This document shows, in pieces, positions 246-47,058 of a DNA stretch of 64,000 nucleotides. A program made the translations under genes and the position numbers. This DNA is from an uncultured Candidatus Saccharibacteria bacterium (GTDB lineage: Bacteria > Patescibacteriota > Minisyncoccia > Phycocordibacterales > UBA918), in NCBI GenBank assembly GCA_964350735.1, contig CAYGKO010000002.1, positions 155,566 to 219,565 on the forward strand. Direction: 5' to 3'. The notes under the pieces were generated by a model, which was given only the letters and a program-made list of their open reading frames with translations, searched no databases and was not told the origin of the DNA. Every line of letters begins with the position of its first letter. Within the stretch, counting starts at the first letter, position 1.

Positions 246-1883
246 CTAGATTGTGTCGTACTCAAACTCTTTTGGAGTTTCGATTAGTTGATCTGTCTGA
301 GGATCGCGAGTTCGTTCAACAGCAACCTCAATAGATTCTGTTTCGACATCTGTTGCCGACTGATTGCTAGTGATATGCACTAGACGTTCTGAACCGCTAC
401 GCTGTAAAAAATCTACAGTTACACCAACGGCACTCAGACTGTTCTCAAGCTCCCGCAGACGCTTACTAAGCGCAGAGGGATTGGTGGCAACCGTTTCGTG
501 CCATTCATTGTCGTTTTCTGCTCGCGATTCCTTTAAACCACGCAGAAGATCGGTCATCGTCCCTTCAAAGTCACCGTGTTCTTCAAGGTAATTGAGTAAT
601 GCTCGACCAGCACTGGTTGTGTAAATAGCATCGTATGCACGATTCTTAGAAGCTTTTTCAAGCGCAGACTCAAACGAGATCGCACCGTAACCCAACGCTT
701 CAGCGCAAGCAGCACCCCACAGCGCGAAGTCATTCATTCGGAATGAACTACGATGATTGAGCGTTTCTTTGATATTCATTGCTTGCACAAGAGTGTCAAA
801 GATTGCACCAAGTAGCTGCGGTTTGAGAGCTTCAAATTCTGCATTAATGTCAGCTCCACTACGTACTTCAGATCGAGGTACCGTTTCAGTCTTAAAGAGC
901 ATGATACGGCTCATTAGGTCGCTTTTGCTGGCTTCCACATTTACACCAGTAATGTACGCTGGGTTTTTGATCTTGAGGACAGTGAGACCAGTATCGGTGT
1001 AGAGTGTCCGACGTGCATCCTCACCGCCAGTAGCAACCATGCAGAGCACATCAGACAGATCGTTATCAATCTTGCTGATATTATCGTTCGCAAATACCCA
1101 CGTCTGATTAAGTAGCGTGAGTAAACTGTCTACCTTACGAATTGGCAAAGATACCCCACCAGCAGATGGATCGAGTAGGTCTTTTACCATTCGTAATAGT
1201 GTTGTCTTGGCTGAACCCGCTGGTCCGTGAATATATGTAATCGCTTGGTCAATATCTTGAATCATCCGTACTGGCAAAGTACTCAAGAACAACATCAGTT
1301 CGTCTTGATTCTTGATATTAATTAGCTTTGCTAGATCCTTTAGATCACCACCTGTCACTGGTGTCACCTGAGGTTTCCCGCATCCTTCCTTAAACAAGAA
1401 AGGTACCTTACTGCCCGAGACTACGCTCCAGCCATCTTTTGTAACCTCAACCACTTCACCAGTAGTATTCTGGAGATTATAGTAGATGTTACCGTCTTGT
1501 TGGGCTACGCGGTGATACAGGTCGTGCTGTTTTTCACCGTACTGTGCTTTGGTCGCCAATGTTCCTGAAATTTCTTTCAAGTTTGAGTCACTCACAATCT
1601 CACCCGCTTGTGTATACAAGCGATGACGCAAATGACTGGTAAAGTCAGTACTGGCAATTGGTAAGTTGACTGACTTGTGACCAATACTAATATTGGCGTA
1701 CGGTGTATTGTTTTGGTCTTTAAATAAGACAATGTCACCTGAAGCTAAGATGCTTTTCAGCAACTTAGTCGTCTTGGTTTGACCACTACTTTTGTGGTCA
1801 AGGTTGTTAGTTTTTGATAAACTACTTGTGTTTGAAGCTGCGTCAGTCTCTGTGACTGGCGCTTCTTTGTTTGAACTTTCCAT
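246..1883 (-). CDS. Phage/plasmid primase-helicase-like P-loop NTPase (VapE / D5 / P4-type C-terminal helicase family).
   Basis: Walker A HGPAGSAKTT followed by a hydrophobic strand ending in an acidic residue (LCMVATGGED). The domain order matches virulence-associated protein E / D5-like helicases of integrated elements. No AEP or toprim primase motif was seen in the N-terminal half. Confidence 0.55.
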   Translation of the reverse strand: MESSNKEAPVTETDAASNTSSLSKTNNLDHKSSGQTKTTKLLKSILASGDIVLFKDQNNTPYANISIGHKSVNLPIASTDFTSHLRHRLYTQAGEIVSDSNLKEISGTLATKAQYGEKQHDLYHRVAQQDGNIYYNLQNTTGEVVEVTKDGWSVVSGSKVPFLFKEGCGKPQVTPVTGGDLKDLAKLINIKNQDELMLFLSTLPVRMIQDIDQAITYIHGPAGSAKTTLLRMVKDLLDPSAGGVSLPIRKVDSLLTLLNQTWVFANDNISKIDNDLSDVLCMVATGGEDARRTLYTDTGLTVLKIKNPAYITGVNVEASKSDLMSRIMLFKTETVPRSEVRSGADINAEFEALKPQLLGAIFDTLVQAMNIKETLNHRSSFRMNDFALWGAACAEALGYGAISFESALEKASKNRAYDAIYTTSAGRALLNYLEEHGDFEGTMTDLLRGLKESRAENDNEWHETVATNPSALSKRLRELENSLSAVGVTVDFLQRSGSERLVHITSNQSATDVETESIEVAVERTRDPQTDQLIETPKEFEYDTI

Positions 1884-1957
1884 ATTGATTAGTGGAATGA
1901 AGTTAAACTAATAAAGACATCATTTACTGATGCCTTCGGATTCTATCTTTTTGTCTG

Positions 1958-1975
1958 TTGATCAAATTTGATCAA
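1958..1975. promoter_or_regulatory. Perfect 18-bp palindrome TTGATCAAATTTGATCAA, upstream of the primase-helicase start and overlapping the stop of the preceding gene. Operator-like.
   Basis: The sequence is its own reverse complement. It sits in the 75-nt region just 5' of the minus-strand start at 1883. Confidence 0.4.
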
Positions 1976-3036
1976 CTTTTGATATACATCGGATTGATTT
2001 GCACAGAATGCATACCTTCGAGTAGCAAAAAGTCTTTTATTGTAGTTTTTTCAGCAACCTTCTTGTTTAAAGCAACAGCAGCGTCATATACAGCTCTATT
2101 ACTAAACGCCTCTTCATCACCCCAATCATCAGTAATTTGGTCCTGACTCCACTCATTTGAAGGATTTTTTAGTAATGTTTGAAGTAACATTGAAGGTCTT
2201 GAATCTTTTTTAATATCAAGATCGAGTACGCGACCATCAAAAATTAGCAGCGCCGCATTCACGTCAACACTTAGTGATTTTATGCCAGAAATAACTTCAG
2301 AATAAGTTCCTTTAATTTCGTTATGTAGCAGCAAGAAACCATTTTGATTGAAATATCTAGCAAGGTTAAGTTCACATAACGGATAGTCAAAAGATACAAA
2401 ATCATACTCGTGACAAGCCAATGTTAGTAAAGCTGATATATCTTTTACCTCAGGAGCAATCTGCATATCTTCAATATAGCGAAATGCAAAAAGGGCTATT
2501 AGTGCCTGCATTGAGATTGTCTGTTGTTGTGTGCTGAAATAATCATTTAAATCGGCCAGACTGTCTTTAAAGAAGTCTCCTGTCTGTACTACCACGCCCA
2601 ACCCCACCCATAAATGGTTAGCTTTCTCGTGAAAGTATTTGTCATATTTTCCTTTCAGGTCCTCTTCGCGATTAAAGAGTATATTTGCAACAAAGTGCAA
2701 TAAAGCGTAGCTCGCATGCCCTGATATGAGGTATTCATATGTCGACTCTTGTGCACCATTAAAAACTGAACGAATATCATCAAAGGGTGCTAATTCTTCC
2801 TTTGTAAAATCTATTCCATCAGTCATTTCGGTGTAACACACTAAAGCACCATTTTTAGCTTTATCAATTACACGCTCGACTTCTCTTGATTTTAAAGATG
2901 TCTGTAAATGCTCTGTTGCCGAATCGTTTTTCATCACCAACTTCACATAGGCATGAAGAGCATACAAAAGTTCCTTGCGACCCGTTTCATCAGCATTAAT
3001 TACTGCGTTATACGAATTATCTAAATCTGCTGTCAT
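1972..3036 (-). CDS. Hypothetical protein (354 aa), first gene of the primase-helicase module.
   Basis: Long ORF with no recognisable motifs, co-directional with the primase-helicase. Possibly mobile-element cargo. Confidence 0.4.
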   Translation of the reverse strand: MTADLDNSYNAVINADETGRKELLYALHAYVKLVMKNDSATEHLQTSLKSREVERVIDKAKNGALVCYTEMTDGIDFTKEELAPFDDIRSVFNGAQESTYEYLISGHASYALLHFVANILFNREEDLKGKYDKYFHEKANHLWVGLGVVVQTGDFFKDSLADLNDYFSTQQQTISMQALIALFAFRYIEDMQIAPEVKDISALLTLACHEYDFVSFDYPLCELNLARYFNQNGFLLLHNEIKGTYSEVISGIKSLSVDVNAALLIFDGRVLDLDIKKDSRPSMLLQTLLKNPSNEWSQDQITDDWGDEEAFSNRAVYDAAVALNKKVAEKTTIKDFLLLEGMHSVQINPMYIKS

Positions 3037-3267
3037 TCATGTCATTATAGCTGTTTTAGCTTTGCATAGCATCAACTAAGTTGCTATGATCTAAACACAA
3101 CTTAGTCACCTAACCCCACGTCGTGAGACATGGGCATGGTGCGAATACAAAGTCTCGACAAGAACAAAAAACCCATTGTTAAAGGGGGTCTCTTGTCGAG
3201 CTGTGTCTGGGAAACCAGGTGCATGAGCTTCGGCTCTACCTTTTAGCAGTGGGCTTTTTGTATACCT

Positions 3268-4239
3268 ATGAAAAAAATAATCTTATCTCTATTACTCATC
3301 ACACCAGTCTTTGTTAGTGCAACTGGCTATGACTATCTCCCAGACGATGTCTGGATCAAACAGCAAGAAGAAAAATCAGAACTGGAGTTTCGTTTGCGTC
3401 AGATCGAGGCTGGTATGAGTGGAAATCTAGAAAGCTCACTACGAACCATTGAGTACCGTATCGACGAACTCGAACGAGAACTACAAACGGAAATCGGCTA
3501 TATCAAAGGTCGCTATGGGCAACTTGGTGTTGCTAACCAAATACCATCAGCGGTGGCTAAAGTTAGTTCTGAGTTTGAAGCTGAAATCTCATACCTAGAA
3601 GATGAACGCGACGAGCTAAAGAAGTTCATTCGTGAGGAAGAAGAAGCCCAAGATGCCATCGAGGCACTAGAAGCTCGTATTGCAGAGCTAGAGTCACAAT
3701 CTGTTGCCGAATCAATTCCTGCCTATACACCAACACAAACAATAGTGCGCCCTACTCCTGAAGCAATGTTTGAATACATCGATTCACTTTCACTTTCTGA
3801 AGCCTCTGCTGTATACAATGATCTGCGTCTATGGGACCCCGAGATGTATGAAGATGTGAAATACTTGATTGATCTCACCTATCCTCATGGGAAGCCAGGA
3901 TCCGCTCGTTATGAAGAATATCAAGCGGCTGAACTAGCTGATATTGCTAACTCGATACAATCTCTACAAAGTGAAATCCAGGCTGCGACAGAGCCAAAAA
4001 TAGCTCCTGAGCCGGTATATGTACCTCCAACACAACCAGAGCCTTTGCCTGAACCAGAAGTGACGGAAGAACGGAAAAACCCAGTAGCTACCTCTACTAA
4101 CGAGACGGCAACAACTACAGAGACTTTTAATTTGGAGTCCGAAGAGATATTTACCGAAGAGCCTGAGCCTGTGACACCAGTACAAGCACAACCGGGTTTT
4201 CTCTCCCGGGTGGTGAATTTCTTCAAGAGCTGGTTTTAA
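3268..4239 (+). CDS. Secreted coiled-coil, proline-rich protein.
   Basis: N-terminal signal peptide MKKIILSLLLITPVFVSA. Followed by heptad-like E/L/R-rich segments and a C-terminal PEP/PEPEV proline-rich region. Confidence 0.5.
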   Translation: MKKIILSLLLITPVFVSATGYDYLPDDVWIKQQEEKSELEFRLRQIEAGMSGNLESSLRTIEYRIDELERELQTEIGYIKGRYGQLGVANQIPSAVAKVSSEFEAEISYLEDERDELKKFIREEEEAQDAIEALEARIAELESQSVAESIPAYTPTQTIVRPTPEAMFEYIDSLSLSEASAVYNDLRLWDPEMYEDVKYLIDLTYPHGKPGSARYEEYQAAELADIANSIQSLQSEIQAATEPKIAPEPVYVPPTQPEPLPEPEVTEERKNPVATSTNETATTTETFNLESEEIFTEEPEPVTPVQAQPGFLSRVVNFFKSWF

Positions 4240-4431: not shown

Positions 4432-5148
4432 ATGGAAATGATTAAAACAAACTCTTTTGAACTGGCAGTACATACTGCCGGAGAACCAAACAGCGAACGA
4501 ATGATGCTCTGTTTGCCAGGTCGACTGGACACTAAAGATTATGCTCACATTCAGAGTCACGTAGAGTACTTTGCCAATAAGGGATTTTTTACCGTAACAT
4601 TTGACCCTCCAGGCACTTGGGAAAGTAGTGACGATATTTCTCTCTACACTACACCAAACTACTTGACTGCCATTCATGAAATTATCGAGCACTTCGGCAA
4701 TCGGCCTACAGTAGCCCTTGGTCATAGCCGTGGCGGCACAATGGCGCTACTTGCAGGAGTACATAACGAGTACGTAACTCACATGGTTGCAGTTATGTCT
4801 CACTGGGGACCAAGTGGACGCCCTGACGTTGAGGGTGATGTGCACGTGTCTACCCGTGATATCCCTCCAGGCACAGAACGTACTGAAGAGCGAAAAACAT
4901 TTGAACTACCAATGAGTTACTTCAACGACTTGGCTGATTACAGTGGACTGGATACATGCGCTAAACCAAAACTGTTCTTTGCTGGCTTAAATGACGTGTT
5001 AATCACCCCTGATGACGTAAAAGAGATGGTTGATGCTTCGGCAGAACCAAAACAGTACCTAGAACTCGACTCAGAGCATGACTACCGACTACATGCTGAT
5101 ATCATTGCTGAAGTAAATGTAAAAGTTGAAGAATTTTTGACTGAGTAA
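4432..5148 (+). CDS. Alpha/beta hydrolase fold esterase/hydrolase.
   Basis: Nucleophile elbow GHSRGG (GxSxG) after a beta-strand, with downstream Asp/His candidates. A sigma70-like promoter lies upstream (TGACAG-18nt-TATAAT near 4395-4423). Confidence 0.6.
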   Translation: MEMIKTNSFELAVHTAGEPNSERMMLCLPGRLDTKDYAHIQSHVEYFANKGFFTVTFDPPGTWESSDDISLYTTPNYLTAIHEIIEHFGNRPTVALGHSRGGTMALLAGVHNEYVTHMVAVMSHWGPSGRPDVEGDVHVSTRDIPPGTERTEERKTFELPMSYFNDLADYSGLDTCAKPKLFFAGLNDVLITPDDVKEMVDASAEPKQYLELDSEHDYRLHADIIAEVNVKVEEFLTE

Positions 5149-5151
5149 TTT

Positions 5152-6021
5152 ATGGAACCTTGGTTTTTATACGTTTGTGCGACTATCGTTTGTAGTGGAC
5201 TAGGTTCATTTCTGCAAAAAGTATCTGCAAAAAATGATCATAATTCAAAAGTAGTTACGATCTTCTCCTTTGTTGTGACTATCCTTGTTGCACCTGCTGT
5301 TTGGTATACTCAAGGAGCTTCTATCGATGGGTGGCAAGTTGCTTTATTCGCAGGTGGATTAGGAGGTATTTTGTACGCACTTTCATACGTCTTGAGAATT
5401 ACCAACCTGCGTTACATCGATACGACGATTTATTTTCCATTGTATAAAACACTCGGTCCACTTCTCGTATTAGTAATTGGTTTACTATATTTTAAAGATA
5501 ATCTCACAACTTTTGACTACTGGGGTATAGGTATTGGGGTACTTGTACCACTAATGCTTCTGAGTAGATCAGAAAAGCATCGGCAGCAAAACCTAACCAA
5601 GGGTTTATTACTGCTTTTACTTACAGCATCAATAACGGCACTAGCATTCGCTACTTCAAAAATTGGAGTTGATAGTGGAGTGAACATTTGGTTGTTTATG
5701 TCCTTGCAAGCAATCGTGGGTATAATCTCTGCACTACTGTTTGCTGTACCAAAATTCAAAAAAGATAAGTTAATGGATTTCACTCTGCATAAGAAAGCAG
5801 TTTGGATTGGATTGTTGCTTGGTCTGATAGATACGCTGAACATTTTCTTTATCCTAATGGCTCTGACTACTGGTCTAGTTTCAGTTGTGTACACAGTGAA
5901 CAGTTTCTACATTCTTATTCCGATCGTGCTTTCAGTCATCTTGTACGGTGAACACATGAATGCACGAAAGGCAGTTGCTATTGGGTTATCAATTGCATCA
6001 GTAATATTTTTCCAAATATAA
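5152..6021 (+). CDS. Polytopic membrane protein, DMT/EamA-like transporter.
   Basis: About 10 hydrophobic helices in a two-fold repeat arrangement. Start lies 4 nt after the hydrolase stop, so it is probably operonic. Confidence 0.45.
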   Translation: MEPWFLYVCATIVCSGLGSFLQKVSAKNDHNSKVVTIFSFVVTILVAPAVWYTQGASIDGWQVALFAGGLGGILYALSYVLRITNLRYIDTTIYFPLYKTLGPLLVLVIGLLYFKDNLTTFDYWGIGIGVLVPLMLLSRSEKHRQQNLTKGLLLLLLTASITALAFATSKIGVDSGVNIWLFMSLQAIVGIISALLFAVPKFKKDKLMDFTLHKKAVWIGLLLGLIDTLNIFFILMALTTGLVSVVYTVNSFYILIPIVLSVILYGEHMNARKAVAIGLSIASVIFFQI

Positions 6022-6032
6022 AAGCAACTCGG

Positions 6033-9000
6033 TTGAATAAATGCTATATAACTACACAAAAGCCTATTATGCTAAAGGACACAATCATAAATATAGTTTC
6101 ACCGGATGAGTTTGAGAATCTTTGCCAACAAATACTTGTTGCAGAGTTTCCAGACTTCGAGGTAATTGATGACAGCTCAGGTGACGGTGGTAATGATGGC
6201 TATAGTGCTAGTGAAAAAACACTTTGGCAGCTTTACTGTCCTAAAAAAGATAATTTGTCGATAAAGGAGCAAAGAGAGCGATACCAGGCAAAGATCAGAA
6301 CCGACTTGGCTAAGGCAGCAAAACTTAAGAGCGAAAAAGGGTACGAGATAGATAGATGGATTTTTACAACAACAAAACCACTTACAGAAGAATTACACAC
6401 TTATCTAAGGAATAAAGCCGGGGATTACGGCTTTGCCTGTTCAGTGTGGTCGTCAAAAAAACTAAATGAGTTGCTGTCAAAACACTCACATGTACAGGAT
6501 TTGTTTCCAGACTTAGTTTTAGCAAAAACTCACGAGCTGGTTGAGGAAGTTAAGGCAAACCAAAAAAGTGTTGCCGACTCAGAAGCAAAAGGAAAACAAA
6601 CTCTCAATTCCGCGTTTAAGAAAAGAATTGACGAGGCCAGAGATCGGTTAAATGTTGGCAATGCCGCAAGCGCAAAGGAGTCATACATGAGAATCTTGGA
6701 TGACATGAGTGAATATCCGTCTGAGATAGATCAGCATCTACTCTTCAGAGCAAAGAATAACCTAGGAAATGCTGAACAGATTCTCGGGAATTACCCAGAG
6801 GCTGTCAGATTATTCAGAGAAGCTTTTGAGCACGATCCAAATAATAAGGTTGCGATACTGAATCAGGCATTAGCATTAACACTCGAAGAAAAGTATGAAG
6901 AAGCATTAGGCTATCTAGAAACTATTTCTGCTGACTACGGTACTGATAATCACTACATTGTTATCAGATGCAATACTCTCAAAATGCTCGGTAGATATTC
7001 AGATTTATACGAATATTTAGGACCTCTGTCCAAACCAAAATTACTTTTAACATACAGGGCTTTTGAACAACAAGACGCAGGAAATTCAAAAGAGGCCCTT
7101 CATTTTTTTGAAGAGGTTTTAAAAATTGAGCGTGGCAATCAAGAAGCTCTTGAAGGTGCCACCCACTCCGTTTTATTTGGTTATAAAGATGATTTGCGTA
7201 ACGGAACTTTGCCTGAATACATGTTGAAGCCAGAGCTGCGTGAAATATTCCAAAAGACTGAGTCATGGATCAAACAGTTAATTGAAATATACAAATTCAA
7301 TAACGAGACTCAAAAGATTGAGGCGGGCTACACAAACCTGGCAGCAGCACAGTTAGCTTTGTCTGACTATCAAACAGCACTCAGATCGGCTCAAAAAGCG
7401 CTCGACTATGACGCTACTTCAATGGTTGCGTGGCAAAACAAAGGTATATGTGAACTGAAACTAAATAACTACAAAGATTGTCTACACAGCCTAAAACAAT
7501 TCGTTGTTTACGGGGGTGTTGAAGCTGCCGTAGCTCCTGTGCTGGCTATGTGTGCACGAGAGATCAATGATCATGATCTGACTATTGAATACGGTGAAAA
7601 ATATTTGCATGTTGATGGAACTATAGATATTGAGATGGCAGAAATTCTAATTGGCGTTTATGCGAACGATCTTAATACGGAGAAAGTTGAGCGAATTCTA
7701 AACGAACTTAAGGACTCTCACCCAGATGATAGTTCAGCGAATAGAGTAATTGGAAATTTTTATAGCAAGCGAGGTTTAGACGACGCTTTATCTCACTTAG
7801 AGAAAGCTATAGCTAAAGCACAAAACCCAACAGATAAAATGATGGCTGAAGTAGCGCTTGCTGACCACCATTTTAAGAGCAGTGACTATAACAAAGCAGC
7901 TGATTTATACGAAAAATATATTGATAAAGATGAAGCACGTTTTGTAACAATAAAATACTTACGCTCTCTTTATCGAGCTGGTAAATATGGTCAGTTATTG
8001 AAAGAGGTGTCAGAGTTCGGTGACAGCGCTAAAAACATTGAGCAGGTTTTAGAGCTTGAAGCACATGCAAATCTAACATTGCAAAACATTGAAATTGCAG
8101 CCAGAAAGTTTAAAAAACTTTATACCAATACCGGAAATACGGACTACGTTATTAATTATGGGTTATGCGAAATTAGACAAAAGAACACCGACAAAGCAAA
8201 AAGCGCTTATGATGCTGCAAGGTCACAAGCTAAAGACATTAACGACTGGATGTCGTTAGCACATGGCTACACCGCGTTAGGTGACTGGGCCTCAGCAATT
8301 GACTTGGTTCATAAAAGCTACGAACAAGACCCTAATGACCCAGAAATAATGAAGTCTTATATATGGATATTTCTATTTTCTGAACAAGCTAGTGATATTG
8401 AAAGTAACGAGAAGCATGTGAAAACATTTCAAGAAATCAGTGTTAAATACGGTGAAAGGTTTCCTGATCAAGAAGACTTGCGAAGCATAAAGATTCAAGG
8501 TGATGATGTGACACCTATTTTAGAGATGATTAAATCTGTCTCGGAAAACGCTCAGCAGGCCCAAACCTTTTACTCAGAATCAAAAGCACCACTGTCCTTT
8601 ATTCCAAACATGACTGGCAGAAGTCCACTGGTTGTTTGGAATGCTTTTACTGCTGACAGTCAAACTGGTATTCAGTCAAATTTTGGGAGCGAAGACGAGA
8701 CAGTGTACGAACAAAAAACACTGAAAGAAACATCAAACCTACAGACTGTTATTGATATATACCCGATTCTGTTACTGCACCGAACAGGCTTCTTAGAAGA
8801 GGTTCTGGGTAATTTTAAAAAAGTTTACATCCACCAAAGCGTCCTTGATAACCTTAATGCTTCAATTAATGACGAACGGCTCGCTTTGAAAAACGGACAA
8901 GAAACTATCGGTTACAACAATGGCCAGTTTGTGATGACTGAGATGAGTGTTGAACAAATCTCGAAATCAGTCGAAAATGTAGAGACATTAATTGAAAAAA

Positions 9001-9626
9001 TTAAATCGTTACCAAATGTTGAAATAAGAGGCTTTGAGTCTGAAACTGATAACGTCGAGACTGATTTTCTCAATAAGCTTCATACCACGACAAGAAGTTC
9101 AGCATATCTAGCTAAGCAACTAGGCATACCGTTTTATACAGACGACAAGATAGTGCGTGCTGTCCTTAAGTCTGATGAAGTATATTCTTTCTCAACATAT
9201 GGCCTACTAACCCACCTTGCGTCTGAAGGTAAGATCACGGACGACCATTACCATTCACTTCACAAGCAAATGCTTGAGTTGGGCTACACATACGTACCTA
9301 TTAATGCCAAAATGATTTTTTATGAGCTGGTCAAAGAGATGAGTATCGAATCAATCGAAATTTATGCCAGAAACATCGCAAAACCTGAAACCACATTACC
9401 TTCAGTAACAGTTGTCTTGAGTGAGTTACTACTCTTTCTCTTAGCTGAAACTGCGATTCCAAACTCTACAAAAAAACAAGCTTTTCAGAGAATGTTGTCA
9501 GAGATAAAAGAAAATCACGATGTGCAAAATATAAGAGAAGGTATATCGTTGATTCTTGGAAAAAATTTAGACAGCACACAAAAAGTCTTTGTAGACCAAT
9601 TACTCGATACTCTTATTGGAAGGTAG
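6033..9626 (+). CDS. Large multidomain protein (1197 aa). N-terminal Mrr-like PD-(D/E)xK restriction-endonuclease domain, a long TPR-repeat array, and a C-terminal domain with PIN-like acidic motifs.
   Basis: The N-terminus FENLCQQILVAEFPDFEVIDDSSGDGGNDG ... LWQLYCPKK ... RWIFTTTKPLTEEL matches the Mrr_cat pattern (FExl..ll..mGy.v ..gDgGiD .. vQcKry .. ifvTt). Many 34-residue A/L/Y/N-rich repeats span roughly residues 200-800. The C-terminal region has VIDIYPILLL and FYTDDKIV acidic motifs. Confidence 0.6.
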   Translation: MNKCYITTQKPIMLKDTIINIVSPDEFENLCQQILVAEFPDFEVIDDSSGDGGNDGYSASEKTLWQLYCPKKDNLSIKEQRERYQAKIRTDLAKAAKLKSEKGYEIDRWIFTTTKPLTEELHTYLRNKAGDYGFACSVWSSKKLNELLSKHSHVQDLFPDLVLAKTHELVEEVKANQKSVADSEAKGKQTLNSAFKKRIDEARDRLNVGNAASAKESYMRILDDMSEYPSEIDQHLLFRAKNNLGNAEQILGNYPEAVRLFREAFEHDPNNKVAILNQALALTLEEKYEEALGYLETISADYGTDNHYIVIRCNTLKMLGRYSDLYEYLGPLSKPKLLLTYRAFEQQDAGNSKEALHFFEEVLKIERGNQEALEGATHSVLFGYKDDLRNGTLPEYMLKPELREIFQKTESWIKQLIEIYKFNNETQKIEAGYTNLAAAQLALSDYQTALRSAQKALDYDATSMVAWQNKGICELKLNNYKDCLHSLKQFVVYGGVEAAVAPVLAMCAREINDHDLTIEYGEKYLHVDGTIDIEMAEILIGVYANDLNTEKVERILNELKDSHPDDSSANRVIGNFYSKRGLDDALSHLEKAIAKAQNPTDKMMAEVALADHHFKSSDYNKAADLYEKYIDKDEARFVTIKYLRSLYRAGKYGQLLKEVSEFGDSAKNIEQVLELEAHANLTLQNIEIAARKFKKLYTNTGNTDYVINYGLCEIRQKNTDKAKSAYDAARSQAKDINDWMSLAHGYTALGDWASAIDLVHKSYEQDPNDPEIMKSYIWIFLFSEQASDIESNEKHVKTFQEISVKYGERFPDQEDLRSIKIQGDDVTPILEMIKSVSENAQQAQTFYSESKAPLSFIPNMTGRSPLVVWNAFTADSQTGIQSNFGSEDETVYEQKTLKETSNLQTVIDIYPILLLHRTGFLEEVLGNFKKVYIHQSVLDNLNASINDERLALKNGQETIGYNNGQFVMTEMSVEQISKSVENVETLIEKIKSLPNVEIRGFESETDNVETDFLNKLHTTTRSSAYLAKQLGIPFYTDDKIVRAVLKSDEVYSFSTYGLLTHLASEGKITDDHYHSLHKQMLELGYTYVPINAKMIFYELVKEMSIESIEIYARNIAKPETTLPSVTVVLSELLLFLLAETAIPNSTKKQAFQRMLSEIKENHDVQNIREGISLILGKNLDSTQKVFVDQLLDTLIGR

Positions 9627-9858
9627 AACAACTTTTCACTTTGATTTATTTTGAAAACTAGTCGCAAAAAATATACGAAGTAAAAATTCTTAGAAAGTTT
9701 GGAAAATGGGGGTTGTTGCTATATGACACTAGTGACAGACTAACTCAAATTTCTAACTGAGAGAGTGAAAATATTGTTGATTTGATGTATTCAGTGCTTT
9801 CCCCAAGTTCGGAAAGCCAGTATAATGGGTCACCAAAGGGGTCACACGACCCAATTAG

Positions 9859-10087: not shown

Positions 10088-10866
10088 GGGGAAATGGTGT
10101 CAGCGGGGAAATGGTGTCAGGGGAAATGGTGTCAGGTACCTTTTATCGGCCTCCCTCTCCCTCGTACCGTCATGCTCAGCTTGTGTCTATCAATCATAGT
10201 GTCTGACCATACATCAGAGCCAAAGGGCTTCCCCTTATTCACCGCATTTCTAGCAGCTTCTAGTTCTGCTGCTGTCAGGGGTAACTGGAGAAAATCTAAG
10301 TAGTTGTTTGGCAATGAAACCGGAGGTGAAGATACTATCGTACTTTTAATGGTATGGAGTCTTTGGTATGCACTGGAATACTTCCAGTTCTGAATATTTT
10401 TAACTAGCTTCGCCCGCAGCGGGTTTCTTTCAACGTAGCGAATGACTGTTAAGAGGTGCTGATCTTGCTGAATTAAAAAAGATTTGTATCTTCCTTGGTA
10501 CAAGGAACCTGAACCAATAGTTTTATTCTGTACATGCCATCGCTGTGTATGAGTGAGCGTGAGCCATTGCATGAACTTCTGTAGATCACCATCTTTTCTT
10601 GGGTGAAGCACGAGATGAAAATGATTAGGCATAATACAATACGCCAATACACGCATGTCGTATTTTTCAACACCATCCTCTAGAATAGACTCAAAGAGTT
10701 TGAAATCTTCTTCTTTGAAGAAGATTTGTAGCCTTGCATTAGCCCTATTAATGATGTGATAGATTTCACCTCCAATATCTACTCTTGGTACCCTTCCCAT
10801 ATGTTACTATAGTAACATAAAAGGTACCTGACACCATTTCTGCTGACACCATTTCTGACATTTCTG
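10088..10866. mobile_element. REP-flanked RAYT / IS200-IS605-like element. A Y1 transposase gene is bracketed by multi-copy inverted GAAATGGTGTCAG repeats.
   Basis: Left end has 3 tandem copies of GGGGAAATGGTGTCAG (10088-10135). Right end has 2+ inverted copies of CTGACACCATTTC (10828-10866). The terminal 18-mers GAAATGGTGTCAGGTACC (10123-10140) and GGTACCTGACACCATTTC (10823-10840) are perfect reverse complements. Confidence 0.65.
10132..10800 (-). CDS. tnpA: HuH-Y1 transposase (REP-associated tyrosine transposase / IS200-like TnpA, COG1943 type).
   Basis: HuH motif MPNHFHLVL and catalytic-Tyr motif YVERNPLRA. N-terminal R.PR...GEIYHIINRANARLQIFFKEEDF matches the RAYT N-terminal pattern. Confidence 0.75.
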   Translation of the reverse strand: MGRVPRVDIGGEIYHIINRANARLQIFFKEEDFKLFESILEDGVEKYDMRVLAYCIMPNHFHLVLHPRKDGDLQKFMQWLTLTHTQRWHVQNKTIGSGSLYQGRYKSFLIQQDQHLLTVIRYVERNPLRAKLVKNIQNWKYSSAYQRLHTIKSTIVSSPPVSLPNNYLDFLQLPLTAAELEAARNAVNKGKPFGSDVWSDTMIDRHKLSMTVRGRGRPIKGT

Positions 10867-16169: not shown

Positions 16170-16332
16170 TTACAGTCTACTGTAACAAAGTAACATGCAT
16201 GAATATGTGTCACTTTTGTCACTTTTTTAGATGCACGAGAAGGGTCGCAGATTCTAAATTTCAAACTTCATAAAAGCCTTACCTCATAAGGAATCAAAGA
16301 GGTTCTATCTGCTGAACGCTCACAAAATACAG

Positions 16333-25727: not shown

Positions 25728-27626
25728 CTATTTTAATAGCTCAAACTGACTCGTCAGTCTCTCTACTTCACTTTGCTCACCAAAGAGTTGGATACCAAGG
25801 AATTCAATATTCTTGAGATCTTTCTCAGCGGTATTGGTTTTTACCTTATTATCATTGGTGGTTTCGATCATTTCCTGCGTGAAGGTAGTCACGCGCACAT
25901 CAGCTGACTCAGCTACTTCAAGTAATGCCTGCAGATCATGGTTGCTATCGCACTCTTTCACCATAATGGCGTGCTGAATATTCATCGGGATTTGCTTGGC
26001 GTCTTTGGTGGCGATGGTATCAAACTTCAAAAGCCCCTTCCCTTCACGAGCACCGAGAGCGGCTGCTAGGTGAGCGGCGGTATTGGTTAGTTGCCAAAGT
26101 TCCATATCGTTCTTCCGCACGACCATCACTGACACTTTGTTACTTTTCTTCTTAGACTTCCCTTCGCCCTTAGGCTTCATCAGTGGGAAATACTGTGTCT
26201 CGCGGATTGGTTTATCCATTAGGTAGGCAAAAAAGCGTTCACCAAGTGTTGCAGCTCCAAAGGTTGGTGGCATACCATATTCGAGCATCTCAACGAACTC
26301 CCAGTCCGGCATCATCGCTTCGTCGTCACCGCGCGCGATCAATTCTTCTTGTACCTTAAAGCGCTCTGCTTGGTCGATAGGATCATTTAACTCCGCGTAA
26401 CAGTTATTAAATTCTGCTCCCGCCATAATAAGCTGAGCTCGAAGCACTTGCCCTTTATTATTCGGATCTTCTTTAGACAACGCTGAAACCAACTTTGGGT
26501 GGCCAATAAGCCACACTGGCCCAGCAATCGACTTGCGGCAGTACTTCCACAGCGTATCCATTAAGCGCTCACGGTTATTACCATCAAACTCAATCCCCAG
26601 TTCAGCCGCAGTAGCGGCCATCTCGACTTCAGTAGCTGAAGTAACATCAATACCAGTCTTTTGCTTGATCGTATCAACGTAATCAATCCGTTCAAACGGT
26701 TTGCTAAAATCTACGTCAAAACCTTTGATAGAAAATTGTTGCTTACCAGCAAAGGCTTCGTCGAGCACATACTTGATATGTCGCTCCAAGAGTACTAAGC
26801 CTTCCTCGAAGCTCATATACGCTGCGTAAAACTCAATATTGGTGAATTCCTGCAAGTGGTCTGGACTGGAACCTTCGTTTCGGTACACACGGCCAACTTC
26901 AAAGGTACGCGGAATGCCTGAGGCCATCAGTCGCTTCTGCCACAGCTCCCCTACAGAAATACGCAAGAACGCATCAATGCCGTAGTCATTATGATGCGTT
27001 GCAAACGGAGTAGCTTCAGCACCACCAGTTGTGGTCTCCAGAGTTGGTGTATGCACCTCCATAAAGCCTTCAGCTTCCATAAACGCGCGAGATGCTTTCC
27101 AAAACTTAGCTTTTGTATCAAATAACGCTCGTAAATCTGGATCAAGTAGAATATCCAGATAGCGCTTGCGGTAGCGCTCTTCTTCGTCTTTAATGCCGAA
27201 ATGTTCAGTTGGCGGATTATTCAAAGCTTTTGTGAGCACCTGCCAGTCCGATACAGCAATTGCTTCAGCGCCGCGCTTGGTTACAAATGGCACTCCTTTC
27301 ACTTCAATAAAATCTCCGGGATCGATCGTATCATTAAGCAGTTCGAACAATCGGACTCCGATCGCATCTTTGGAGAGAAACATTTGCATCCGGGCCGTAC
27401 CATCAAAAATATCAGCAAAAGCTGAACCACCGTGACGTCTGAGCGCCATTACCCGTCCAGCGACCACTACTTCAACCTCATCGTCTGCCAACGTCTCAAA
27501 ATCTGCCAGCACCTGCGAAATCGCATGCGTCCGAGTTGTCTCAGCCGCATACGGGTTCATCCCAGCCGCCGCGAGCTGATCTCGCTTTCGTAGACGTTCG
27601 GCTTTGATTTCTTCGAAGGTTGACAT
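25728..27626 (-). CDS. lysS: Lysyl-tRNA synthetase (class II) with a ~140-aa C-terminal extension resembling a PTH2-type peptidyl-tRNA hydrolase domain.
   Basis: LysRS N-terminus MSTFEEIKAERLRKRDQL, anticodon-binding and class II motifs up to FPLMKPK. A K-rich linker GEGKSKKKSNK follows. Then KVSVMVVRKNDM...TAAHLAAAL...IMVKECDSNHDLQALLEVAESADVRVTTFTQ...FLGIQLFG, which parallels PTH2 (vlvvRtDLkMgkGKiaAQcsHAa ... vvlK..de..L..L...A...gl.v..i.DAG.T....tVLgIGP). Confidence 0.8.
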   Translation of the reverse strand: MSTFEEIKAERLRKRDQLAAAGMNPYAAETTRTHAISQVLADFETLADDEVEVVVAGRVMALRRHGGSAFADIFDGTARMQMFLSKDAIGVRLFELLNDTIDPGDFIEVKGVPFVTKRGAEAIAVSDWQVLTKALNNPPTEHFGIKDEEERYRKRYLDILLDPDLRALFDTKAKFWKASRAFMEAEGFMEVHTPTLETTTGGAEATPFATHHNDYGIDAFLRISVGELWQKRLMASGIPRTFEVGRVYRNEGSSPDHLQEFTNIEFYAAYMSFEEGLVLLERHIKYVLDEAFAGKQQFSIKGFDVDFSKPFERIDYVDTIKQKTGIDVTSATEVEMAATAAELGIEFDGNNRERLMDTLWKYCRKSIAGPVWLIGHPKLVSALSKEDPNNKGQVLRAQLIMAGAEFNNCYAELNDPIDQAERFKVQEELIARGDDEAMMPDWEFVEMLEYGMPPTFGAATLGERFFAYLMDKPIRETQYFPLMKPKGEGKSKKKSNKVSVMVVRKNDMELWQLTNTAAHLAAALGAREGKGLLKFDTIATKDAKQIPMNIQHAIMVKECDSNHDLQALLEVAESADVRVTTFTQEMIETTNDNKVKTNTAEKDLKNIEFLGIQLFGEQSEVERLTSQFELLK

Positions 27627-37745: not shown

Positions 37746-40700
37746 TTATTTATTAAACGTCATCTTTTGATTATTGGTGTCATAGCCAAGCACAAGCTGT
37801 CCTTGTACAGATTTATTTTCAAGATACATTCCTAGATTCATCGAACCGTCTGTTTTTATAAATCCATTATCTGTATCGGCTTTCACATCAGCTAACATAG
37901 CCTGAAGATTAGTGCGCACCGCTTCAGGCAGTTTACTAATCTGCGTATCATTAAGCTCAATACCCTGTGCCGATAAACCAGTTATTTCAATATCGGCTAA
38001 TGCTTTTGTAGTAAGTCCTGATTCCACGCTCATCAGGCTCGCTAGCGCCATATCACGTTCTGTTAAAGCCTTGAATAGCCGCTCGATACTCGCTGCGTCA
38101 GTCACATCGTCTGACAAACGACTTACTAGTTCTCGGCCCGTATCAAATAAATTGGGTATAAACTGAGACAGGTTTTCGTTGTATCCATCACGAACTCGTT
38201 CTGTGATTTCAGCAATACTTACTTCAACAGCCGCTCGATCAGGACCCGCCGCATCAGCCCCAGCTGTTTCATAAGTCGATTCAGTCGTTGCCACCGGTTG
38301 ATTTTCAAGCGCCTCTACCAGAGGTGTTAAATTAATCGCTTCCTGTGGAATAACGTTGATGTTAGTTACATTAGCATTCATCGCCTGCATAGCTTCAGTA
38401 TTAGCTCCCACAGCTGCAATCGCCGCGTCACGCTGAACTTCTGTCACACCTGGCATATTTGATTCAAGATACCTCTGGAAAAGCTTTGTCACATCATCTC
38501 CTGACCTCGCTACGGGAGCAATCTCTGTTGGATTAATAACCGGCGTGACTTCCGTTGATACTGGTGAAGATGCTGCGTTTTCTGCAGCATAGGATAGCTC
38601 TGAAATCTTATTCATGATTGGGCTTAGATCATACGTCTCTCCTTCTTGTACTATGTCAATATTATTCGTACCAAGCGCCTCTGGGTTACTACGGAAGCTT
38701 TCAATCGCCGCTACTCGTATTTCTCGTGAGGTCTCTCCCCAAGCAGGATCGTCTGTTTCAGCTAATTTTTTAAGGATCTGATCTACTGCTTCAGTAATAT
38801 TGCAGTTTTTCGGCATGGTGAAGTTAAATGCTTCAGAGTTTTTACCAACAGTAATTTCAAGTGGCTCTATAACTTCACCTTCGGGGCCAACTGAAGTTAC
38901 GCGCTCAACCGCAGCAGGCGCAGCGGCCGCATCTGGAGAGACCGGCCTTGCCGTTGGTGCCGGAGCTTTGTCTGTTGTCACAGCACTCTGCCCTTCTAGA
39001 CCGACAACTCGCTGAACAGCAGGACCTTCAGTCAAGATATTTTCATAACGATTTCCATCAATAATTGCTGTCACTTTAGTTAATGAACCATCTGGAACAA
39101 ATGTGACTCCGGTGATATTGGTTTCAGGAGCAGCCAACAAGTTCGCATCCACGTTATCAGGGATTAAATCTGGATTGATTCGCAATCCAACACCATACAC
39201 TGATGACACTCTATCCAAACTTCCTCCAATCTGCCCCACCTCTCCTCCTTCGATACCAAACTGTCTAAGTGCCGAGATCGGTCTGTTCTCTGAATATACG
39301 ATCGAATGTGCTTCAGGAGATCCCGTGATTTGAGTAAAGCCAGCGTATGGTGAGTCTATAAGTTCCATTGCCCGCTGCTCCATTCCAGGAGACACACTAA
39401 TCCCCTCAAGCGGATCGACCGCAGTTGCTTCGAGTAGATTAGTGTTTTCAAGCTTTGGTGAAGTAGCCACGCTACTACTACCTGTTAGTTTCTCTAGAGA
39501 AACCGGGTCTTTTGCAGATCCCAAACCGTAGCCTGACCCATCCAAAAGATGTACCTCATACCCGTCAGCAGCAGAGCTCAAATAAACACTGCCAATTTCA
39601 TCAGGCACCACTGATGAAAAATTTGCACTAAGAGACAGGATTCTCTCAAGCTGCTCCGACCGAAGACCCACCAAATCATACAGACCAGGTCCATGCAGAT
39701 ACATCCCGGAAAAATTAAAAGCCCCTGAACTCAGAAGCGGATCACTAAACTTAGTAGTGTCGAATTCTTTCTCAGCTGCAAATGCCAGTATGTTGCGCTG
39801 ACCAATCCTCAGCATTCCCACTGTTTGACCTTCCAAGGTCCCTGACGTTACAGAAATTGGCAAACCTTCAATCACTAGCCCATCTTCTGTTTTGTATAAA
39901 TTCAAACCACCTGACATACCGTCAAGTCTGACATCCAATGATCCGAGATTCTGAAAACCACTTCCGTCCGCTGCAGTTCCATTATCTATCTGACCCTCAC
40001 CAGTAAAGGTTAGGTATGCGAATGTGAGACCCTCCACACCTGACACCTTTGATACTTGCCCGGTAACAGATTGCGGCTGCAGTTCTCCATTTACTAATTT
40101 AAAATCAACAAAATCAACTCCTTGTGCATTTTTCAACGTATCAGAAGCTGTACTCCCCATTAACTCCGCCAACCTTGTCATATCAAGTGTCCGGTCTGTA
40201 GTATATTCATACTCACCAGCACCACCATTACGATTATCAAGCATCACCAGTCCGTTTTCTGACACAGTCACGTTCTCAGCTTCAATACCAAACTGTGCAA
40301 ATAGTTCTTTAGCCGCTTCTGGTGACACACCACCCGACAGCCTGTCTAGCAGCTCAGTTTTACTGATTAGAGACTCAGCGCCGGTTACTTCTATATCCGC
40401 TCCACTACCTGCAACATTCTCGACAGCTCCACCTGCAGGTACTGTCGTGCCCTCACCTAAAATCGCTGCAAGATCAGCTGCGTCCACTGTTCCTGCAGCA
40501 GCTTCAGGTGCTGAGTTTTCTGCTGTCGCCGGGTCAGTTAACTGATCTAATCGAACTTGTTGCGCTGAGGTTTCATCTGTGTAGATCAACATATTCTCAA
40601 CCGATCCGTCTGACTTCACGCTGATACTGGCGATTGAGTAGTCTGATAACGCTTTACCTTCTGGAGTGAGTTTTGTTAGAAGCCCAGAACTTGGATCTAA

Positions 40701-42056
40701 TGTAACTCCGTCAGCTCGCTCAATCATGAAAGCAAATCCATCAGGATTTTCAGAAACTGTCATATTCACCTTTGCGTCCGCGTGTAAATCAATCTGCAAA
40801 TCAGGAATCAAACTTGTAATAGTCTGGGCACTTACATTTTCTGCTGCCAAAAAATTAATTGAATCAGCGCCACCTTCTGCAAACACTTGCAAATCAGCTT
40901 CACCAAACAGTGGCTGGAGCTCGCGAGTGATACCATCTAAATCTCTGGGATTAATCTCTTGTGCGAACAGTTCAGTAAGCTGTTGACGTGGAGTTTGTAC
41001 TTCAGCTTCGGGCACGGCTTCTCCTGCTGCAGTTGATTCAGCTTCAGCCTCTGATGCCGTGCCTAAGATAGCAGTCAGATCTGCAGCACTTACCACACCA
41101 GCAGGTGTAGTTTCAGATCCTGCTAGCGACTCTTGGGCTGCGGCTGACGGTGCCACAAAATCTACGACCCCAGACCACGTTGCGGAAGCTGTTTCTTTTC
41201 CTGCATCAAGTAGTGCTTGGCGTCCGGCTCCATCAAACGCCACTGAGTCAGTCATGAACGCTGTACCGATAGCATACCCAAGCCCTTTAGTCATGGCTTG
41301 AATATCACCAGAACGAACCGCTTTTGCCCAACCTTGCAGCCCTTGCACAAAGACAGTATTAGCATTCACTTTAATCTGTTCAGCTTTTTCACGAGCATGC
41401 TGCGCGTGCCGCTCGGCCAGCACTTGATTGACTCGCTTCAGTGTATCGACCGCTGCCCGGGCAACCGTAGCCGCTCCAGCACCAAGTCCTCCAGTAGCCA
41501 AACCAAGCGCTAAGATAATTGGGGTGGTGGCTTTCTCGGCAACATTGAGTCGTTGGTTCCAGTCCTCATTGCTAATTGATTTTTGAATCCCTTCTCGAGC
41601 GCCAGCATGACGAGTACGGTTGGCCCACAGAATCTGTGCCAAAACTTTACGCTGTTCAGCGGCTTCTGCTTTTGGTAGCTGATCAATCACGCTCCGAAGT
41701 TCTGAGAGCGTCTGTAACATCTCAATACGCTCACTACTGTCAACTCGTGCTGCTTCATCTTCTCCCCAGACACCCTTTTCTGTACGCAACTTTTTTGCTA
41801 CCTGTAGCATCTTTGCCCGACGTTCGACTAGATTAAACGCCAGTTGCTCGTGCTCCTGCATGAAACTACTCATTTCTTTAGCTTCTCCACGTGCTTTCCA
41901 AGCCGCTACTCCAGTGGCATTTTCAATAAGTGCGCGACCAAGCTTTGCACCACCTTCCATGACGCGTTTTCGGTCGAGCGCCAAAAGTCGCTGCAGCCAT
42001 GATGACTTACCTACTGTTTCTGCTGCCGATGATGACATTGTTCCTTCAAGAGCCAT
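37746..42056 (-). CDS. Giant lineage-specific protein (1436 aa) with one N-proximal hydrophobic segment. Probably a surface or secreted component of the T4SS-like locus.
   Basis: Uninterrupted 4.3-kb ORF, translationally coupled to its neighbours. Hydrophobic stretch TTPIILALGLATGGLGAGAATVARAA. The remainder is A/T/S/G/E-rich with beta-rich segments. Confidence 0.5.
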   Translation of the reverse strand: MALEGTMSSSAAETVGKSSWLQRLLALDRKRVMEGGAKLGRALIENATGVAAWKARGEAKEMSSFMQEHEQLAFNLVERRAKMLQVAKKLRTEKGVWGEDEAARVDSSERIEMLQTLSELRSVIDQLPKAEAAEQRKVLAQILWANRTRHAGAREGIQKSISNEDWNQRLNVAEKATTPIILALGLATGGLGAGAATVARAAVDTLKRVNQVLAERHAQHAREKAEQIKVNANTVFVQGLQGWAKAVRSGDIQAMTKGLGYAIGTAFMTDSVAFDGAGRQALLDAGKETASATWSGVVDFVAPSAAAQESLAGSETTPAGVVSAADLTAILGTASEAEAESTAAGEAVPEAEVQTPRQQLTELFAQEINPRDLDGITRELQPLFGEADLQVFAEGGADSINFLAAENVSAQTITSLIPDLQIDLHADAKVNMTVSENPDGFAFMIERADGVTLDPSSGLLTKLTPEGKALSDYSIASISVKSDGSVENMLIYTDETSAQQVRLDQLTDPATAENSAPEAAAGTVDAADLAAILGEGTTVPAGGAVENVAGSGADIEVTGAESLISKTELLDRLSGGVSPEAAKELFAQFGIEAENVTVSENGLVMLDNRNGGAGEYEYTTDRTLDMTRLAELMGSTASDTLKNAQGVDFVDFKLVNGELQPQSVTGQVSKVSGVEGLTFAYLTFTGEGQIDNGTAADGSGFQNLGSLDVRLDGMSGGLNLYKTEDGLVIEGLPISVTSGTLEGQTVGMLRIGQRNILAFAAEKEFDTTKFSDPLLSSGAFNFSGMYLHGPGLYDLVGLRSEQLERILSLSANFSSVVPDEIGSVYLSSAADGYEVHLLDGSGYGLGSAKDPVSLEKLTGSSSVATSPKLENTNLLEATAVDPLEGISVSPGMEQRAMELIDSPYAGFTQITGSPEAHSIVYSENRPISALRQFGIEGGEVGQIGGSLDRVSSVYGVGLRINPDLIPDNVDANLLAAPETNITGVTFVPDGSLTKVTAIIDGNRYENILTEGPAVQRVVGLEGQSAVTTDKAPAPTARPVSPDAAAAPAAVERVTSVGPEGEVIEPLEITVGKNSEAFNFTMPKNCNITEAVDQILKKLAETDDPAWGETSREIRVAAIESFRSNPEALGTNNIDIVQEGETYDLSPIMNKISELSYAAENAASSPVSTEVTPVINPTEIAPVARSGDDVTKLFQRYLESNMPGVTEVQRDAAIAAVGANTEAMQAMNANVTNINVIPQEAINLTPLVEALENQPVATTESTYETAGADAAGPDRAAVEVSIAEITERVRDGYNENLSQFIPNLFDTGRELVSRLSDDVTDAASIERLFKALTERDMALASLMSVESGLTTKALADIEITGLSAQGIELNDTQISKLPEAVRTNLQAMLADVKADTDNGFIKTDGSMNLGMYLENKSVQGQLVLGYDTNNQKMTFNK

Positions 42057-42058
42057 AG

Positions 42059-42352
42059 CTATGTAGTTGGTTGTTTAAGATCTGCTAATAACGCATTCAG
42101 TTCAGCTGTAGTCATTGCATCAATATCTGCGGCCTCTGCTTGGTATTCAGGAATTGATTCCGCAGCCTTTTGTTCAAGCACAGCCCGATATACAAGATCT
42201 ACCATTTCCGCCAAATGCTCTGGCTCCATTGTTTTGGCAAGTTCTACAAACACATCTTTAATATACGGTGGCACATCAAGCTCATCCAAAAGCCAGCCAA
42301 ACACTCGTCCTAGTGCCTCTAAATCTTGTACCGCTTGAGGATCAGAATTCAT
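42059..42352 (-). CDS. Small acidic helical protein (97 aa) between the 922-aa and 1436-aa genes. Chaperone-like.
   Basis: 97 aa, D/E-rich, no TM. 3-nt and 7-nt gaps to its neighbours indicate translational coupling. Confidence 0.35.
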   Translation of the reverse strand: MNSDPQAVQDLEALGRVFGWLLDELDVPPYIKDVFVELAKTMEPEHLAEMVDLVYRAVLEQKAAESIPEYQAEAADIDAMTTAELNALLADLKQPTT

Positions 42353-42358
42353 AAGATG

Positions 42359-47046: not shown

Positions 47047-47058
47047 AATTAATTTTAA

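Follow-up and report, generated by a model that had tools for sequence, protein, structure and literature searches.

The closest described systems to the protein considered here are the TGP proteins, in which a constant part composed of tetratricopeptide repeats (TPRs), a GreA/B-C domain and a PIN domain is preceded by a variable effector (Kaur, Iyer, Burroughs & Aravind, eLife 2021; PMC8195603). Thirteen N-terminal effectors were described, of which the restriction endonuclease (REase) is the commonest in the published tables, and the genes mostly stand alone (PMC8195603). The supplement of the same study holds 453 entries with REase, TPR, GreA/B-C and PIN, compared with 3 entries with REase, TPR and PIN. 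In the mechanism proposed there, the GreA/B-C domain docks on RNA polymerase (RNAP), the PIN domain cuts the transcript, and the N-terminal effector acts as a back-up suicide device (PMC8195603). The TGP protein Agp of E. coli ECOR25, together with Bab, gave abortive-infection protection against T5; T5 resistance was lost with S628L or L634P in GreA/B-C and with D762N in the PIN domain, and no Bab-independent activity of Agp was found (bioRxiv 10.1101/2024.11.07.622273). The gene analysed here lies at 6069-9626 of a 64,000-nucleotide stretch (the window) from an uncultured Candidatus Saccharibacteria bacterium, and encodes a large protein with a nuclease-fold domain, a TPR array and a PIN domain. 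An earlier note on this DNA had placed the gene in an operon with a hydrolase and a transporter gene, and had overlooked that the architecture was already named as the TPR-GreA/B-C-PIN system (PMC8195603).

The favoured reading, held at a probability of roughly 0.6, is that 6069-9626 encodes a stand-alone, horizontally mobile anti-phage conflict protein of the TGP family in its REase-effector form, from a sub-lineage that lost or never had the GreA/B-C domain. Membership in the TGP family is proposed because a PF20698 PIN domain (67.5 bits) was combined with a TPR array, an N-terminal REase effector and a stand-alone gene. The TGP architecture has been catalogued and one relative has been validated, and the locus is no new kind of system. 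The new or under-described parts are the sub-lineage without GreA/B-C, the predominance of Patescibacteria among the relatives found, and the non-canonical, conserved active-site pattern of a reused effector family. The architecture, the fold, the conservation pattern, the absence of GreA/B-C, the mobility of the gene, the defence neighbourhoods and the reuse of the N-terminal domain as an effector module were obtained by computation and are described below.

Domain organization of the large protein

The mechanical open reading frame (ORF) of the large gene spans 6033-9626 on the + strand, with a TTG start at 6033 and 1197 aa, which was the length given in the earlier note. The true start is most likely the ATG at 6069, giving 1185 aa, because this Met is where all homologue alignments start, P0001 of NCBI has the same length, and the blastn similarity to the locus of the closest relative (L001) begins at 6084. 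Residues are counted from ATG 6069 unless TTG numbering is stated.

The large protein was composed of an N-terminal restriction-endonuclease-fold domain (the N-domain), a TPR array, a conserved linker, a PIN domain and a helical C-terminus, as follows.

6069-9626, + strand: gene of the REase-fold/TPR/PIN protein (start ATG 6069, 1185 aa)
6069-6518 (aa 1-150), + strand: REase-fold effector domain, from the fold model and Foldseek
6519-6653 (aa 151-195), + strand: linker and long helix, poorly conserved (pLDDT <50 at 151-172; 13-29% identity to distant homologues)
6654-8393 (aa ~196-775, ~580 aa), + strand: TPR/alpha-solenoid array with matches to many Pfam TPR families; presumed sensor or scaffold
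8391-8426 (aa ~775-786, 'QASDIESNEKHV'), + strand: site of the GreA/B-C-like domain in longer relatives; domain absent here
8394-8738 (aa 776-890), + strand: helical pre-PIN linker, conserved; low-confidence model
8748-9164 (aa 894-1032), + strand: PIN domain of the PF20698 type, from the PF20698 match
9225-9623 (aa 1053-1185), + strand: C-terminal all-helical domain (AF2 helices 1058-1183), role unknown, conserved in the family

The motifs that the earlier note had quoted from the protein were all present. The PIN-like C-terminal domain that it had suspected matched PF20698 (PIN-TPR-GreABC) with E = 1.9e-18. The score of 67.5 bits is well above the gathering score of 27.8, and the match covers aa 906-1044 (TTG numbering) and all but the last three of the 138 profile positions (1-135). 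The PIN acid D896 was Asp in 26 of the 29 subfamily members and Glu in 2, and the 8 long relatives all had Asp there. Positions 1025 and 1026 were Asp in 28/29 members, and the long relatives had Glu or Asp at 1025 and Asp at 1026. Residues E958, E972 and E992 were candidates for the remaining PIN acid. In the pre-PIN linker, P841, W857, G867, G873 and E877 were invariant, and residues 827-874 were modelled with pLDDT <50. No STAND or other NTPase family was found in the large protein by Pfam and NCBIfam scans.

Absence of the GreA/B-C domain

The domain that gives the TGP family the middle part of its name was missing from the window protein. The longer relative P0007 (1467 aa) carried an insert of ~70-90 aa where the window protein and its ~1185-aa relatives had an 11-residue loop. 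This insert matched PF01272 (GreA_GreB) with E = 0.011 over profile positions 12-76 of 77, and the corresponding segment of the window protein gave no PF01272 match at E <= 10. The genome scan also yielded relatives of 1270-1285 aa with a homologous segment ("...YAAFIGKKLGDKISF...EFVIENILPIEKY"). A custom hidden Markov model (HMM) of the insert found nine relatives of 1270-1467 aa with E = 2e-28 to 2e-44, and the same HMM, with filters off and E <= 10, gave no match in the window protein or its subfamily of 1181-1242 aa. In the full-length AF2 model, residues 758-797 formed two helices and residues 798-874 formed low-confidence helices, with no beta-rich domain in 798-874.

The C-terminal module of 428 positions, which includes the pre-PIN linker and the C-terminal helical domain, aligned contiguously in 28 subfamily members. 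Because of this contiguous alignment, the ~1185-aa form without GreA/B-C is, as judged by sequence comparison, a stable sub-lineage and no local deletion.

The large protein might still target transcription complexes, with the PIN domain cutting the transcripts of hijacked RNAP, contact being made through the TPRs or the pre-PIN linker, and the REase domain serving as a back-up suicide effector. In favour, homologues of its PIN domain and its pre-PIN linker occur in relatives that bear GreA/B-C, and the model comes from Kaur et al. (PMC8195603). However, neither a GreA/B-C-like sequence nor a beta-rich domain was detectable in the large protein, the model is itself a proposal, and Agp showed no activity apart from Bab (bioRxiv 10.1101/2024.11.07.622273). 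Targeting of transcription complexes is thus considered unlikely.

Fold and predicted active site of the N-domain

The AlphaFold model of the N-domain, based on a 53-sequence alignment, had a pLDDT of 92.8 and a pTM of 0.88. Its topology was alpha-beta-beta-beta-alpha-beta, and the best structural matches were AF1548, FokI and Avs4, with Avs4 (PDB code 8dgf) as the top Foldseek match (prob 1.00, TMq 0.63). Because of the modelled topology and the match to Avs4, a restriction-endonuclease fold was established for the N-domain at the level of the predicted structure. HMM searches with the profiles A3 and A4 gave only chance-level PDB matches, so the nuclease kinship was visible at the fold level only. 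The earlier note had reported a clear Mrr_cat signature; the fold was borne out by AlphaFold and Foldseek, whereas the Pfam profile Mrr_cat (PF04471) scored 17.6-18.3 bits (E = 0.003-0.004), below its gathering score of 21. In the N-domain family, 16/53 members matched Mrr_cat below threshold, and the best E value among the 53 was 2.5e-4.

Conservation was analysed in 139 representatives. Residues D39, G41 and D43 were conserved in 100%, K75 in 99%, D79 and K82 in 96%, C57 in 91% and E26 in 70%. At position 54, the usual Asp, Glu or Gln of the (D/E/Q)xK motif, the family had Ala (79%) or Gln (17%), and at position 56, the usual Lys, it had Tyr (76%), His (16%) or Phe (7%). The window protein had Q54-L55-Y56 at this beta3 motif. 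The segment LWQLYCPKK had been read as a QxK-like motif, which did not hold in the family, and of the catalytic triad that was to be checked, D43 was present in all representatives whereas the (E/Q)xK part was replaced by Q-L-Y here and A-x-Y in the family. The segment RWIFTTTKP, described earlier as a helix, formed strand beta4 (residues 96-101).

Residues D39 and D43 were located on the beta2 loop and strand, and residues K75, D79 and K82 on the same side of the helix that follows beta3. K75, D79 and K82 appear to supply the missing Lys and acid, replacing the (D/E)xK of strand beta3 in the predicted active site. Relocation of catalytic residues to the helix after beta3 is known from PD-(D/E)xK families of the Cfr10I/NgoMIV class. 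The N-domain was also the best-conserved part of the protein, with 49-54% identity to distant homologues, compared with 21-38% elsewhere.

The replaced beta3 motif, with Q-L-Y in the window protein and A-x-Y in 79% of the family, and the sub-threshold match to Mrr_cat would also fit a catalytically dead N-domain that acts as a nucleic-acid-binding or oligomerisation/adaptor module, leaving the PIN domain as the only active nuclease. However, the 96-100% invariance of D39, G41, D43, K75, D79 and K82 across 139 diverged representatives is typical of an active site. The N-domain also fills the effector position in STAND and ABC-three-component (ABC-3C) proteins in which no further enzymatic domain is present, and the relocation known from the Cfr10I/NgoMIV class offers a precedent. 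A dead N-domain is therefore improbable, and an active nuclease domain of non-canonical type is preferred.

Reuse of the N-domain in other conflict proteins

A word-indexed search with the N-domain alone gave no homologue, and an exhaustive HMM search was needed. The same type of search with the full-length protein gave 6 real homologues among 8000 candidates, which were swamped by TPR words. Among 1.84 billion representative proteins, an HMM built from residues 1-150 matched 537 clusters at E <= 1e-3; in nearly all matches listed, the N-domain formed the N-terminus or lay close to it. It was fused to NACHT/nSTAND1/3/5/6 NTPases (P0029, P0040), AAA ATPases (P0032, P0143), MalT-type TPR proteins (P0027), and the CTD10 adaptor of ABC-3C systems (L018, L021, L028). 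The gene directly after the N-domain and CTD10 fusion encoded a DUF2326/AAA_23 ABC ATPase in L021 (9707-12796) and L028 (1449-4961). From this gene order, the N-domain family is predicted to serve also as an ABC-3C effector.

The commonest architecture was a protein of ~440-480 aa (P0026, P0045, P0065 and ~60 other representatives), in which the C-terminal ~300 aa had no Pfam domain; the length class of 400-499 aa accounted for 64 of the 157 N-domain matches listed. As predicted from these fusions, the N-domain is a plug-in effector of STAND, ABC-3C and TGP proteins. The family is an unannotated, non-canonical nuclease-fold module, and its definition would help the annotation of defence islands.

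Distribution and genomic neighbourhoods

The closest relative, P0002 (L001), was 80% identical in amino acids, and the nucleotide identity of 75% was confined to 6084-9628 (blastn). The flanks of L001 were unrelated to those of the window, and the similarity ended at the ORF borders. The P0002 gene adjoined genes for a serine recombinase and an N6/N4 DNA methyltransferase. Neighbours differed at every related locus, and included the following.

L005: between hsdM and hsdS/hsdR of a type I restriction-modification (R-M) locus, with DUF5615 and SocA_Panacea
L008: after hsdR and ygjP
L004: adjoins Abi_alpha, DUF3800 and a LexA-type gene
L003: adjoins an SLFN-like helicase
L002: adjoins SNase
L006: adjoins a D12 methyltransferase and LexA

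A motif-seeded scan of 185,579 species representatives (one genome per species) found 8 full-length relatives, a rough count, with 6 in Patescibacteria, 1 in Acidobacteriota and 1 in a metagenome-assembled genome (MAG) labelled "Gammaproteobacteria". The copy in the latter MAG was 96% identical to a Patescibacterial copy. The scan was seeded from alignment A2, alignment A1 (with P0007) being too divergent. From the ORF-confined similarity, the unrelated flanks, the sporadic distribution and the R-M, Abi and recombinase neighbours, the large gene is judged to be a single-gene cassette that is mobile, occurs sporadically and has defence-type surroundings. Together with the PF20698 match, the R-M, methyltransferase, Abi_alpha and serine recombinase neighbours of the homologues agreed with the earlier description of a nuclease/TPR/PIN fusion of an anti-phage-associated type. 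No plasmid match was found by megablast, and no convincing direct repeats bounded an island around the large gene.

Two genes preceded the large gene in the window, and both were predicted correctly by the earlier note.

4432-5148, + strand: alpha/beta hydrolase gene (Pfam Abhydrolase_1, E = 1e-13), neighbour in this genome only
5152-6021, + strand: gene of a two-domain EamA/DMT transporter (Pfam EamA, E = 2.9e-18), neighbour in this genome only

The hydrolase had a GHSRG nucleophile elbow. The three genes read in the same direction, 3 bp and 47 bp apart, and the + strand showed no terminator-like site in between, which would suit one functional defence or sensor operon of hydrolase, DMT transporter and nuclease-TPR-PIN protein, as had been supposed. 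However, homologues of the hydrolase and DMT genes were present in 0/30 related loci from other genomes (tblastn), and the sole match was L032, a metagenomic copy identical to this region. The 80%-identical relative was preceded by an unrelated gene, and TGP genes mostly stand alone (PMC8195603). A functional three-gene operon is very unlikely. Because the two genes were absent from the 30 related loci and the homology to the nearest relative stops at the ORF ends, comparison across loci indicates that they are no conserved partners of the large gene. They may be co-transcribed with it here, yet functionally unrelated, and the hydrolase-transporter 'partnership' should not enter annotations as a system component.

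A housekeeping RNA-processing or scaffold protein of the host lineage, to which TPR and PIN domains might point since both also occur in housekeeping proteins of RNA metabolism, is the least probable explanation, given the sporadic occurrence (the 8 relatives in 185,579 species representatives, which also disposed of the universal scaffold that the earlier note had considered), the unrelated flanks of the nearest relative, the R-M, Abi and recombinase neighbourhoods, and an N-domain common to STAND and ABC-3C conflict systems.

Several further observations were made at the related loci. A LexA-type gene (LexA_DNA_bind with or without Peptidase_S24) was located directly upstream of the REase-TPR-PIN gene in L006 (8919-9599), L013 (6429-7109) and L004 (8471-8815). 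These neighbours represented two independent lineages, L006 and L013 being 94% identical and L004 distant. The arrangement may reflect SOS-linked regulation or coincidence. In L007, L008 and L009, REase-TPR-PIN proteins with 94-96% identity were found in MAGs labelled Gammaproteobacteria, Patescibacteria and Saccharibacteria; this identity stems either from a very recent transfer between phyla or from mis-binning of short contigs, and among the three only L008 was located on a long (467-kb) contig. The only other similarity between the window and L001 was a patch of ~105 nt with 73% nucleotide identity (window 16207-16309, L001 11855-11958), which was not a tRNA.

Proposed mechanism

For sensing, activation, substrates and phenotype of the large protein, the following scheme is proposed. 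The TPR solenoid (~580 aa) and the helical C-terminal parts would hold both nuclease domains inactive and sense an infection cue. In a protein without GreA/B-C, direct binding of a phage protein is a more likely cue than contact with RNAP through its secondary channel. Ligand binding would lead to a conformational change or oligomerisation, upon which the N-terminal REase-fold domains would pair, as in FokI and Avs4, and then cleave DNA. The FokI and Avs4 nuclease domains cut only after induced dimerisation. The PIN domain would cleave RNA, and the outcome would be destruction of phage nucleic acids or abortive infection.

Several points weigh against the favoured reading. The only experimentally tested TGP protein, Agp, is neither of the REase type nor free of GreA/B-C, and point mutations in GreA/B-C kill its defence, so that a form without the domain may work or sense differently. 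The canonical (D/E/Q)xK is missing, and the N-domain might be inactive or differ in chemistry. Within the PIN acidic quartet, clear assignment was limited to D896 and D1025/D1026. The full-length AF2 model had a pTM of 0.44, too low to fix the inter-domain geometry. The genome scan rested on two N-domain motifs, which makes the family size and the taxonomic bias only rough. PADLOC-DB v2, which the earlier note had named as a check, did not recognise the large protein.

A more specific proposal is put forward only tentatively. The REase-TPR-PIN proteins of ~1185 aa would form a distinct, mostly Patescibacterial (candidate phyla radiation, CPR) lineage without RNAP docking, which would sense phage through the TPRs. 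They would carry an undescribed PD-(D/E)xK variant, with the catalytic Lys and the second acid moved to the post-beta3 helix (K75, D79, K82), and the same variant would have been recruited by STAND proteins, ABC-3C systems and the ~450-aa class. This combination of claims is possible but doubtful as a whole.

A natural lineage without GreA/B-C allows one to ask whether RNAP docking is the sensing step or an add-on. To our knowledge, descriptions of defence systems from the small Patescibacterial genomes are few, and the spread of a 3.6-kb single-gene system among them gives a hint of how such episymbionts withstand phage.

Other features of the window

A Y1_Tnp/RAYT-like gene was located at 10132-10800 on the - strand (Y1_Tnp, 3.4e-17), and scored 78.9 bits with REP_Tyr_transpos (NCBIfam) against a cut-off of 80. 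It was flanked by 39-nt inverted repeats (10108-10146 and 10817-10855) that were 95% complementary, and each arm held a tandem GAAATGGTGTCAGG. The gene and its repeats formed a compact mobile unit of ~750 bp (10108-10855), ~480 bp downstream of the large gene. The RAYT element named by the earlier note was confirmed as this RAYT-like gene downstream, whereas the mobile-element remnant could not be confirmed upstream, where the genes have no recognisable domains.

Upstream of the hydrolase gene (246-4239), three genes of unknown function were located, which may be further accessory or defence genes.

246-1883, - strand: gene of a 545-aa P-loop protein with weak ABC_tran/AAA matches
1972-3036, - strand: gene of a 354-aa protein with no recognisable domain
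3268-4239, + strand: gene of a 323-aa coiled-coil protein with no recognisable domain

No firm Pfam, PADLOC or PDB match was found for these three genes. An ABC-3C identity was considered for them and dropped, as they had no ABC-3C, MC or CTD Pfam match.

Farther along, the lysyl-tRNA synthetase (LysRS) gene at 25728-27626 (- strand) encoded 632 aa with a C-terminal PF09391 (DUF2000) extension, and its best named matches were from Parcubacteria/Paceibacterota. PBP2, MurA, PriA and LysRS of the window were all under the NCBIfam equivalog cut-offs. By these features, the host of the window appears to belong to Patescibacteria and to resemble Parcubacteria/Paceibacterota. At 37746-49848 (- strand), a block of very large ORFs encoded proteins of 1436, 922, 640 and 929 aa. 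The 929-aa protein had a TraD-like coupling-protein segment (TIGR03743, 2.9e-12), and the other three gave no NCBIfam match. The block possibly represents a gene cluster for type IV secretion or a conjugation-like process.

Comparison with known systems

Two further papers (PMC13092281 and PMC10907252) were irrelevant to the REase-TPR-PIN architecture. The N-domain differed from Mrr_cat (PF04471) and FokI-type nucleases in its match below the gathering score, in a beta3 motif of A/Q-x-Y/H/F instead of (D/E/Q)xK, and in the invariant K75, D79 and K82 on the helix after beta3.

When compared with Avs4 (PDB code 8dgf), the window protein had no STAND NTPase and had an extra C-terminal PIN domain. 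The Avs4 nuclease presumably carries a QxK motif, which was not conserved in the N-domain family of the window protein. The ABC-3C effectors with CTD10 (PF20275) shared the same N-domain family, located N-terminal to CTD10 and encoded beside a DUF2326 ABC ATPase (L018, L021, L028). However, the regulator in these systems is an ABC ATPase complex, whereas the window protein has a fused TPR-PIN part.

Agp and the window protein had the TPR...PIN backbone in common. In Agp, an amyloid signalling motif (BASS11) stands at the N-terminus and pore formation is left to a separate partner, Bab, whereas the window protein carries its nuclease effector in the same chain and lacks both a partner gene and the GreA/B-C domain. 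From the catalogued TGP proteins, the window protein differed by having no GreA/B-C between the TPRs and the PIN domain, and its full-length relatives were found mostly in Patescibacteria. It shared with them the PF20698 PIN domain, the upstream TPR array, the N-terminal REase effector, the stand-alone gene and the sporadic distribution.

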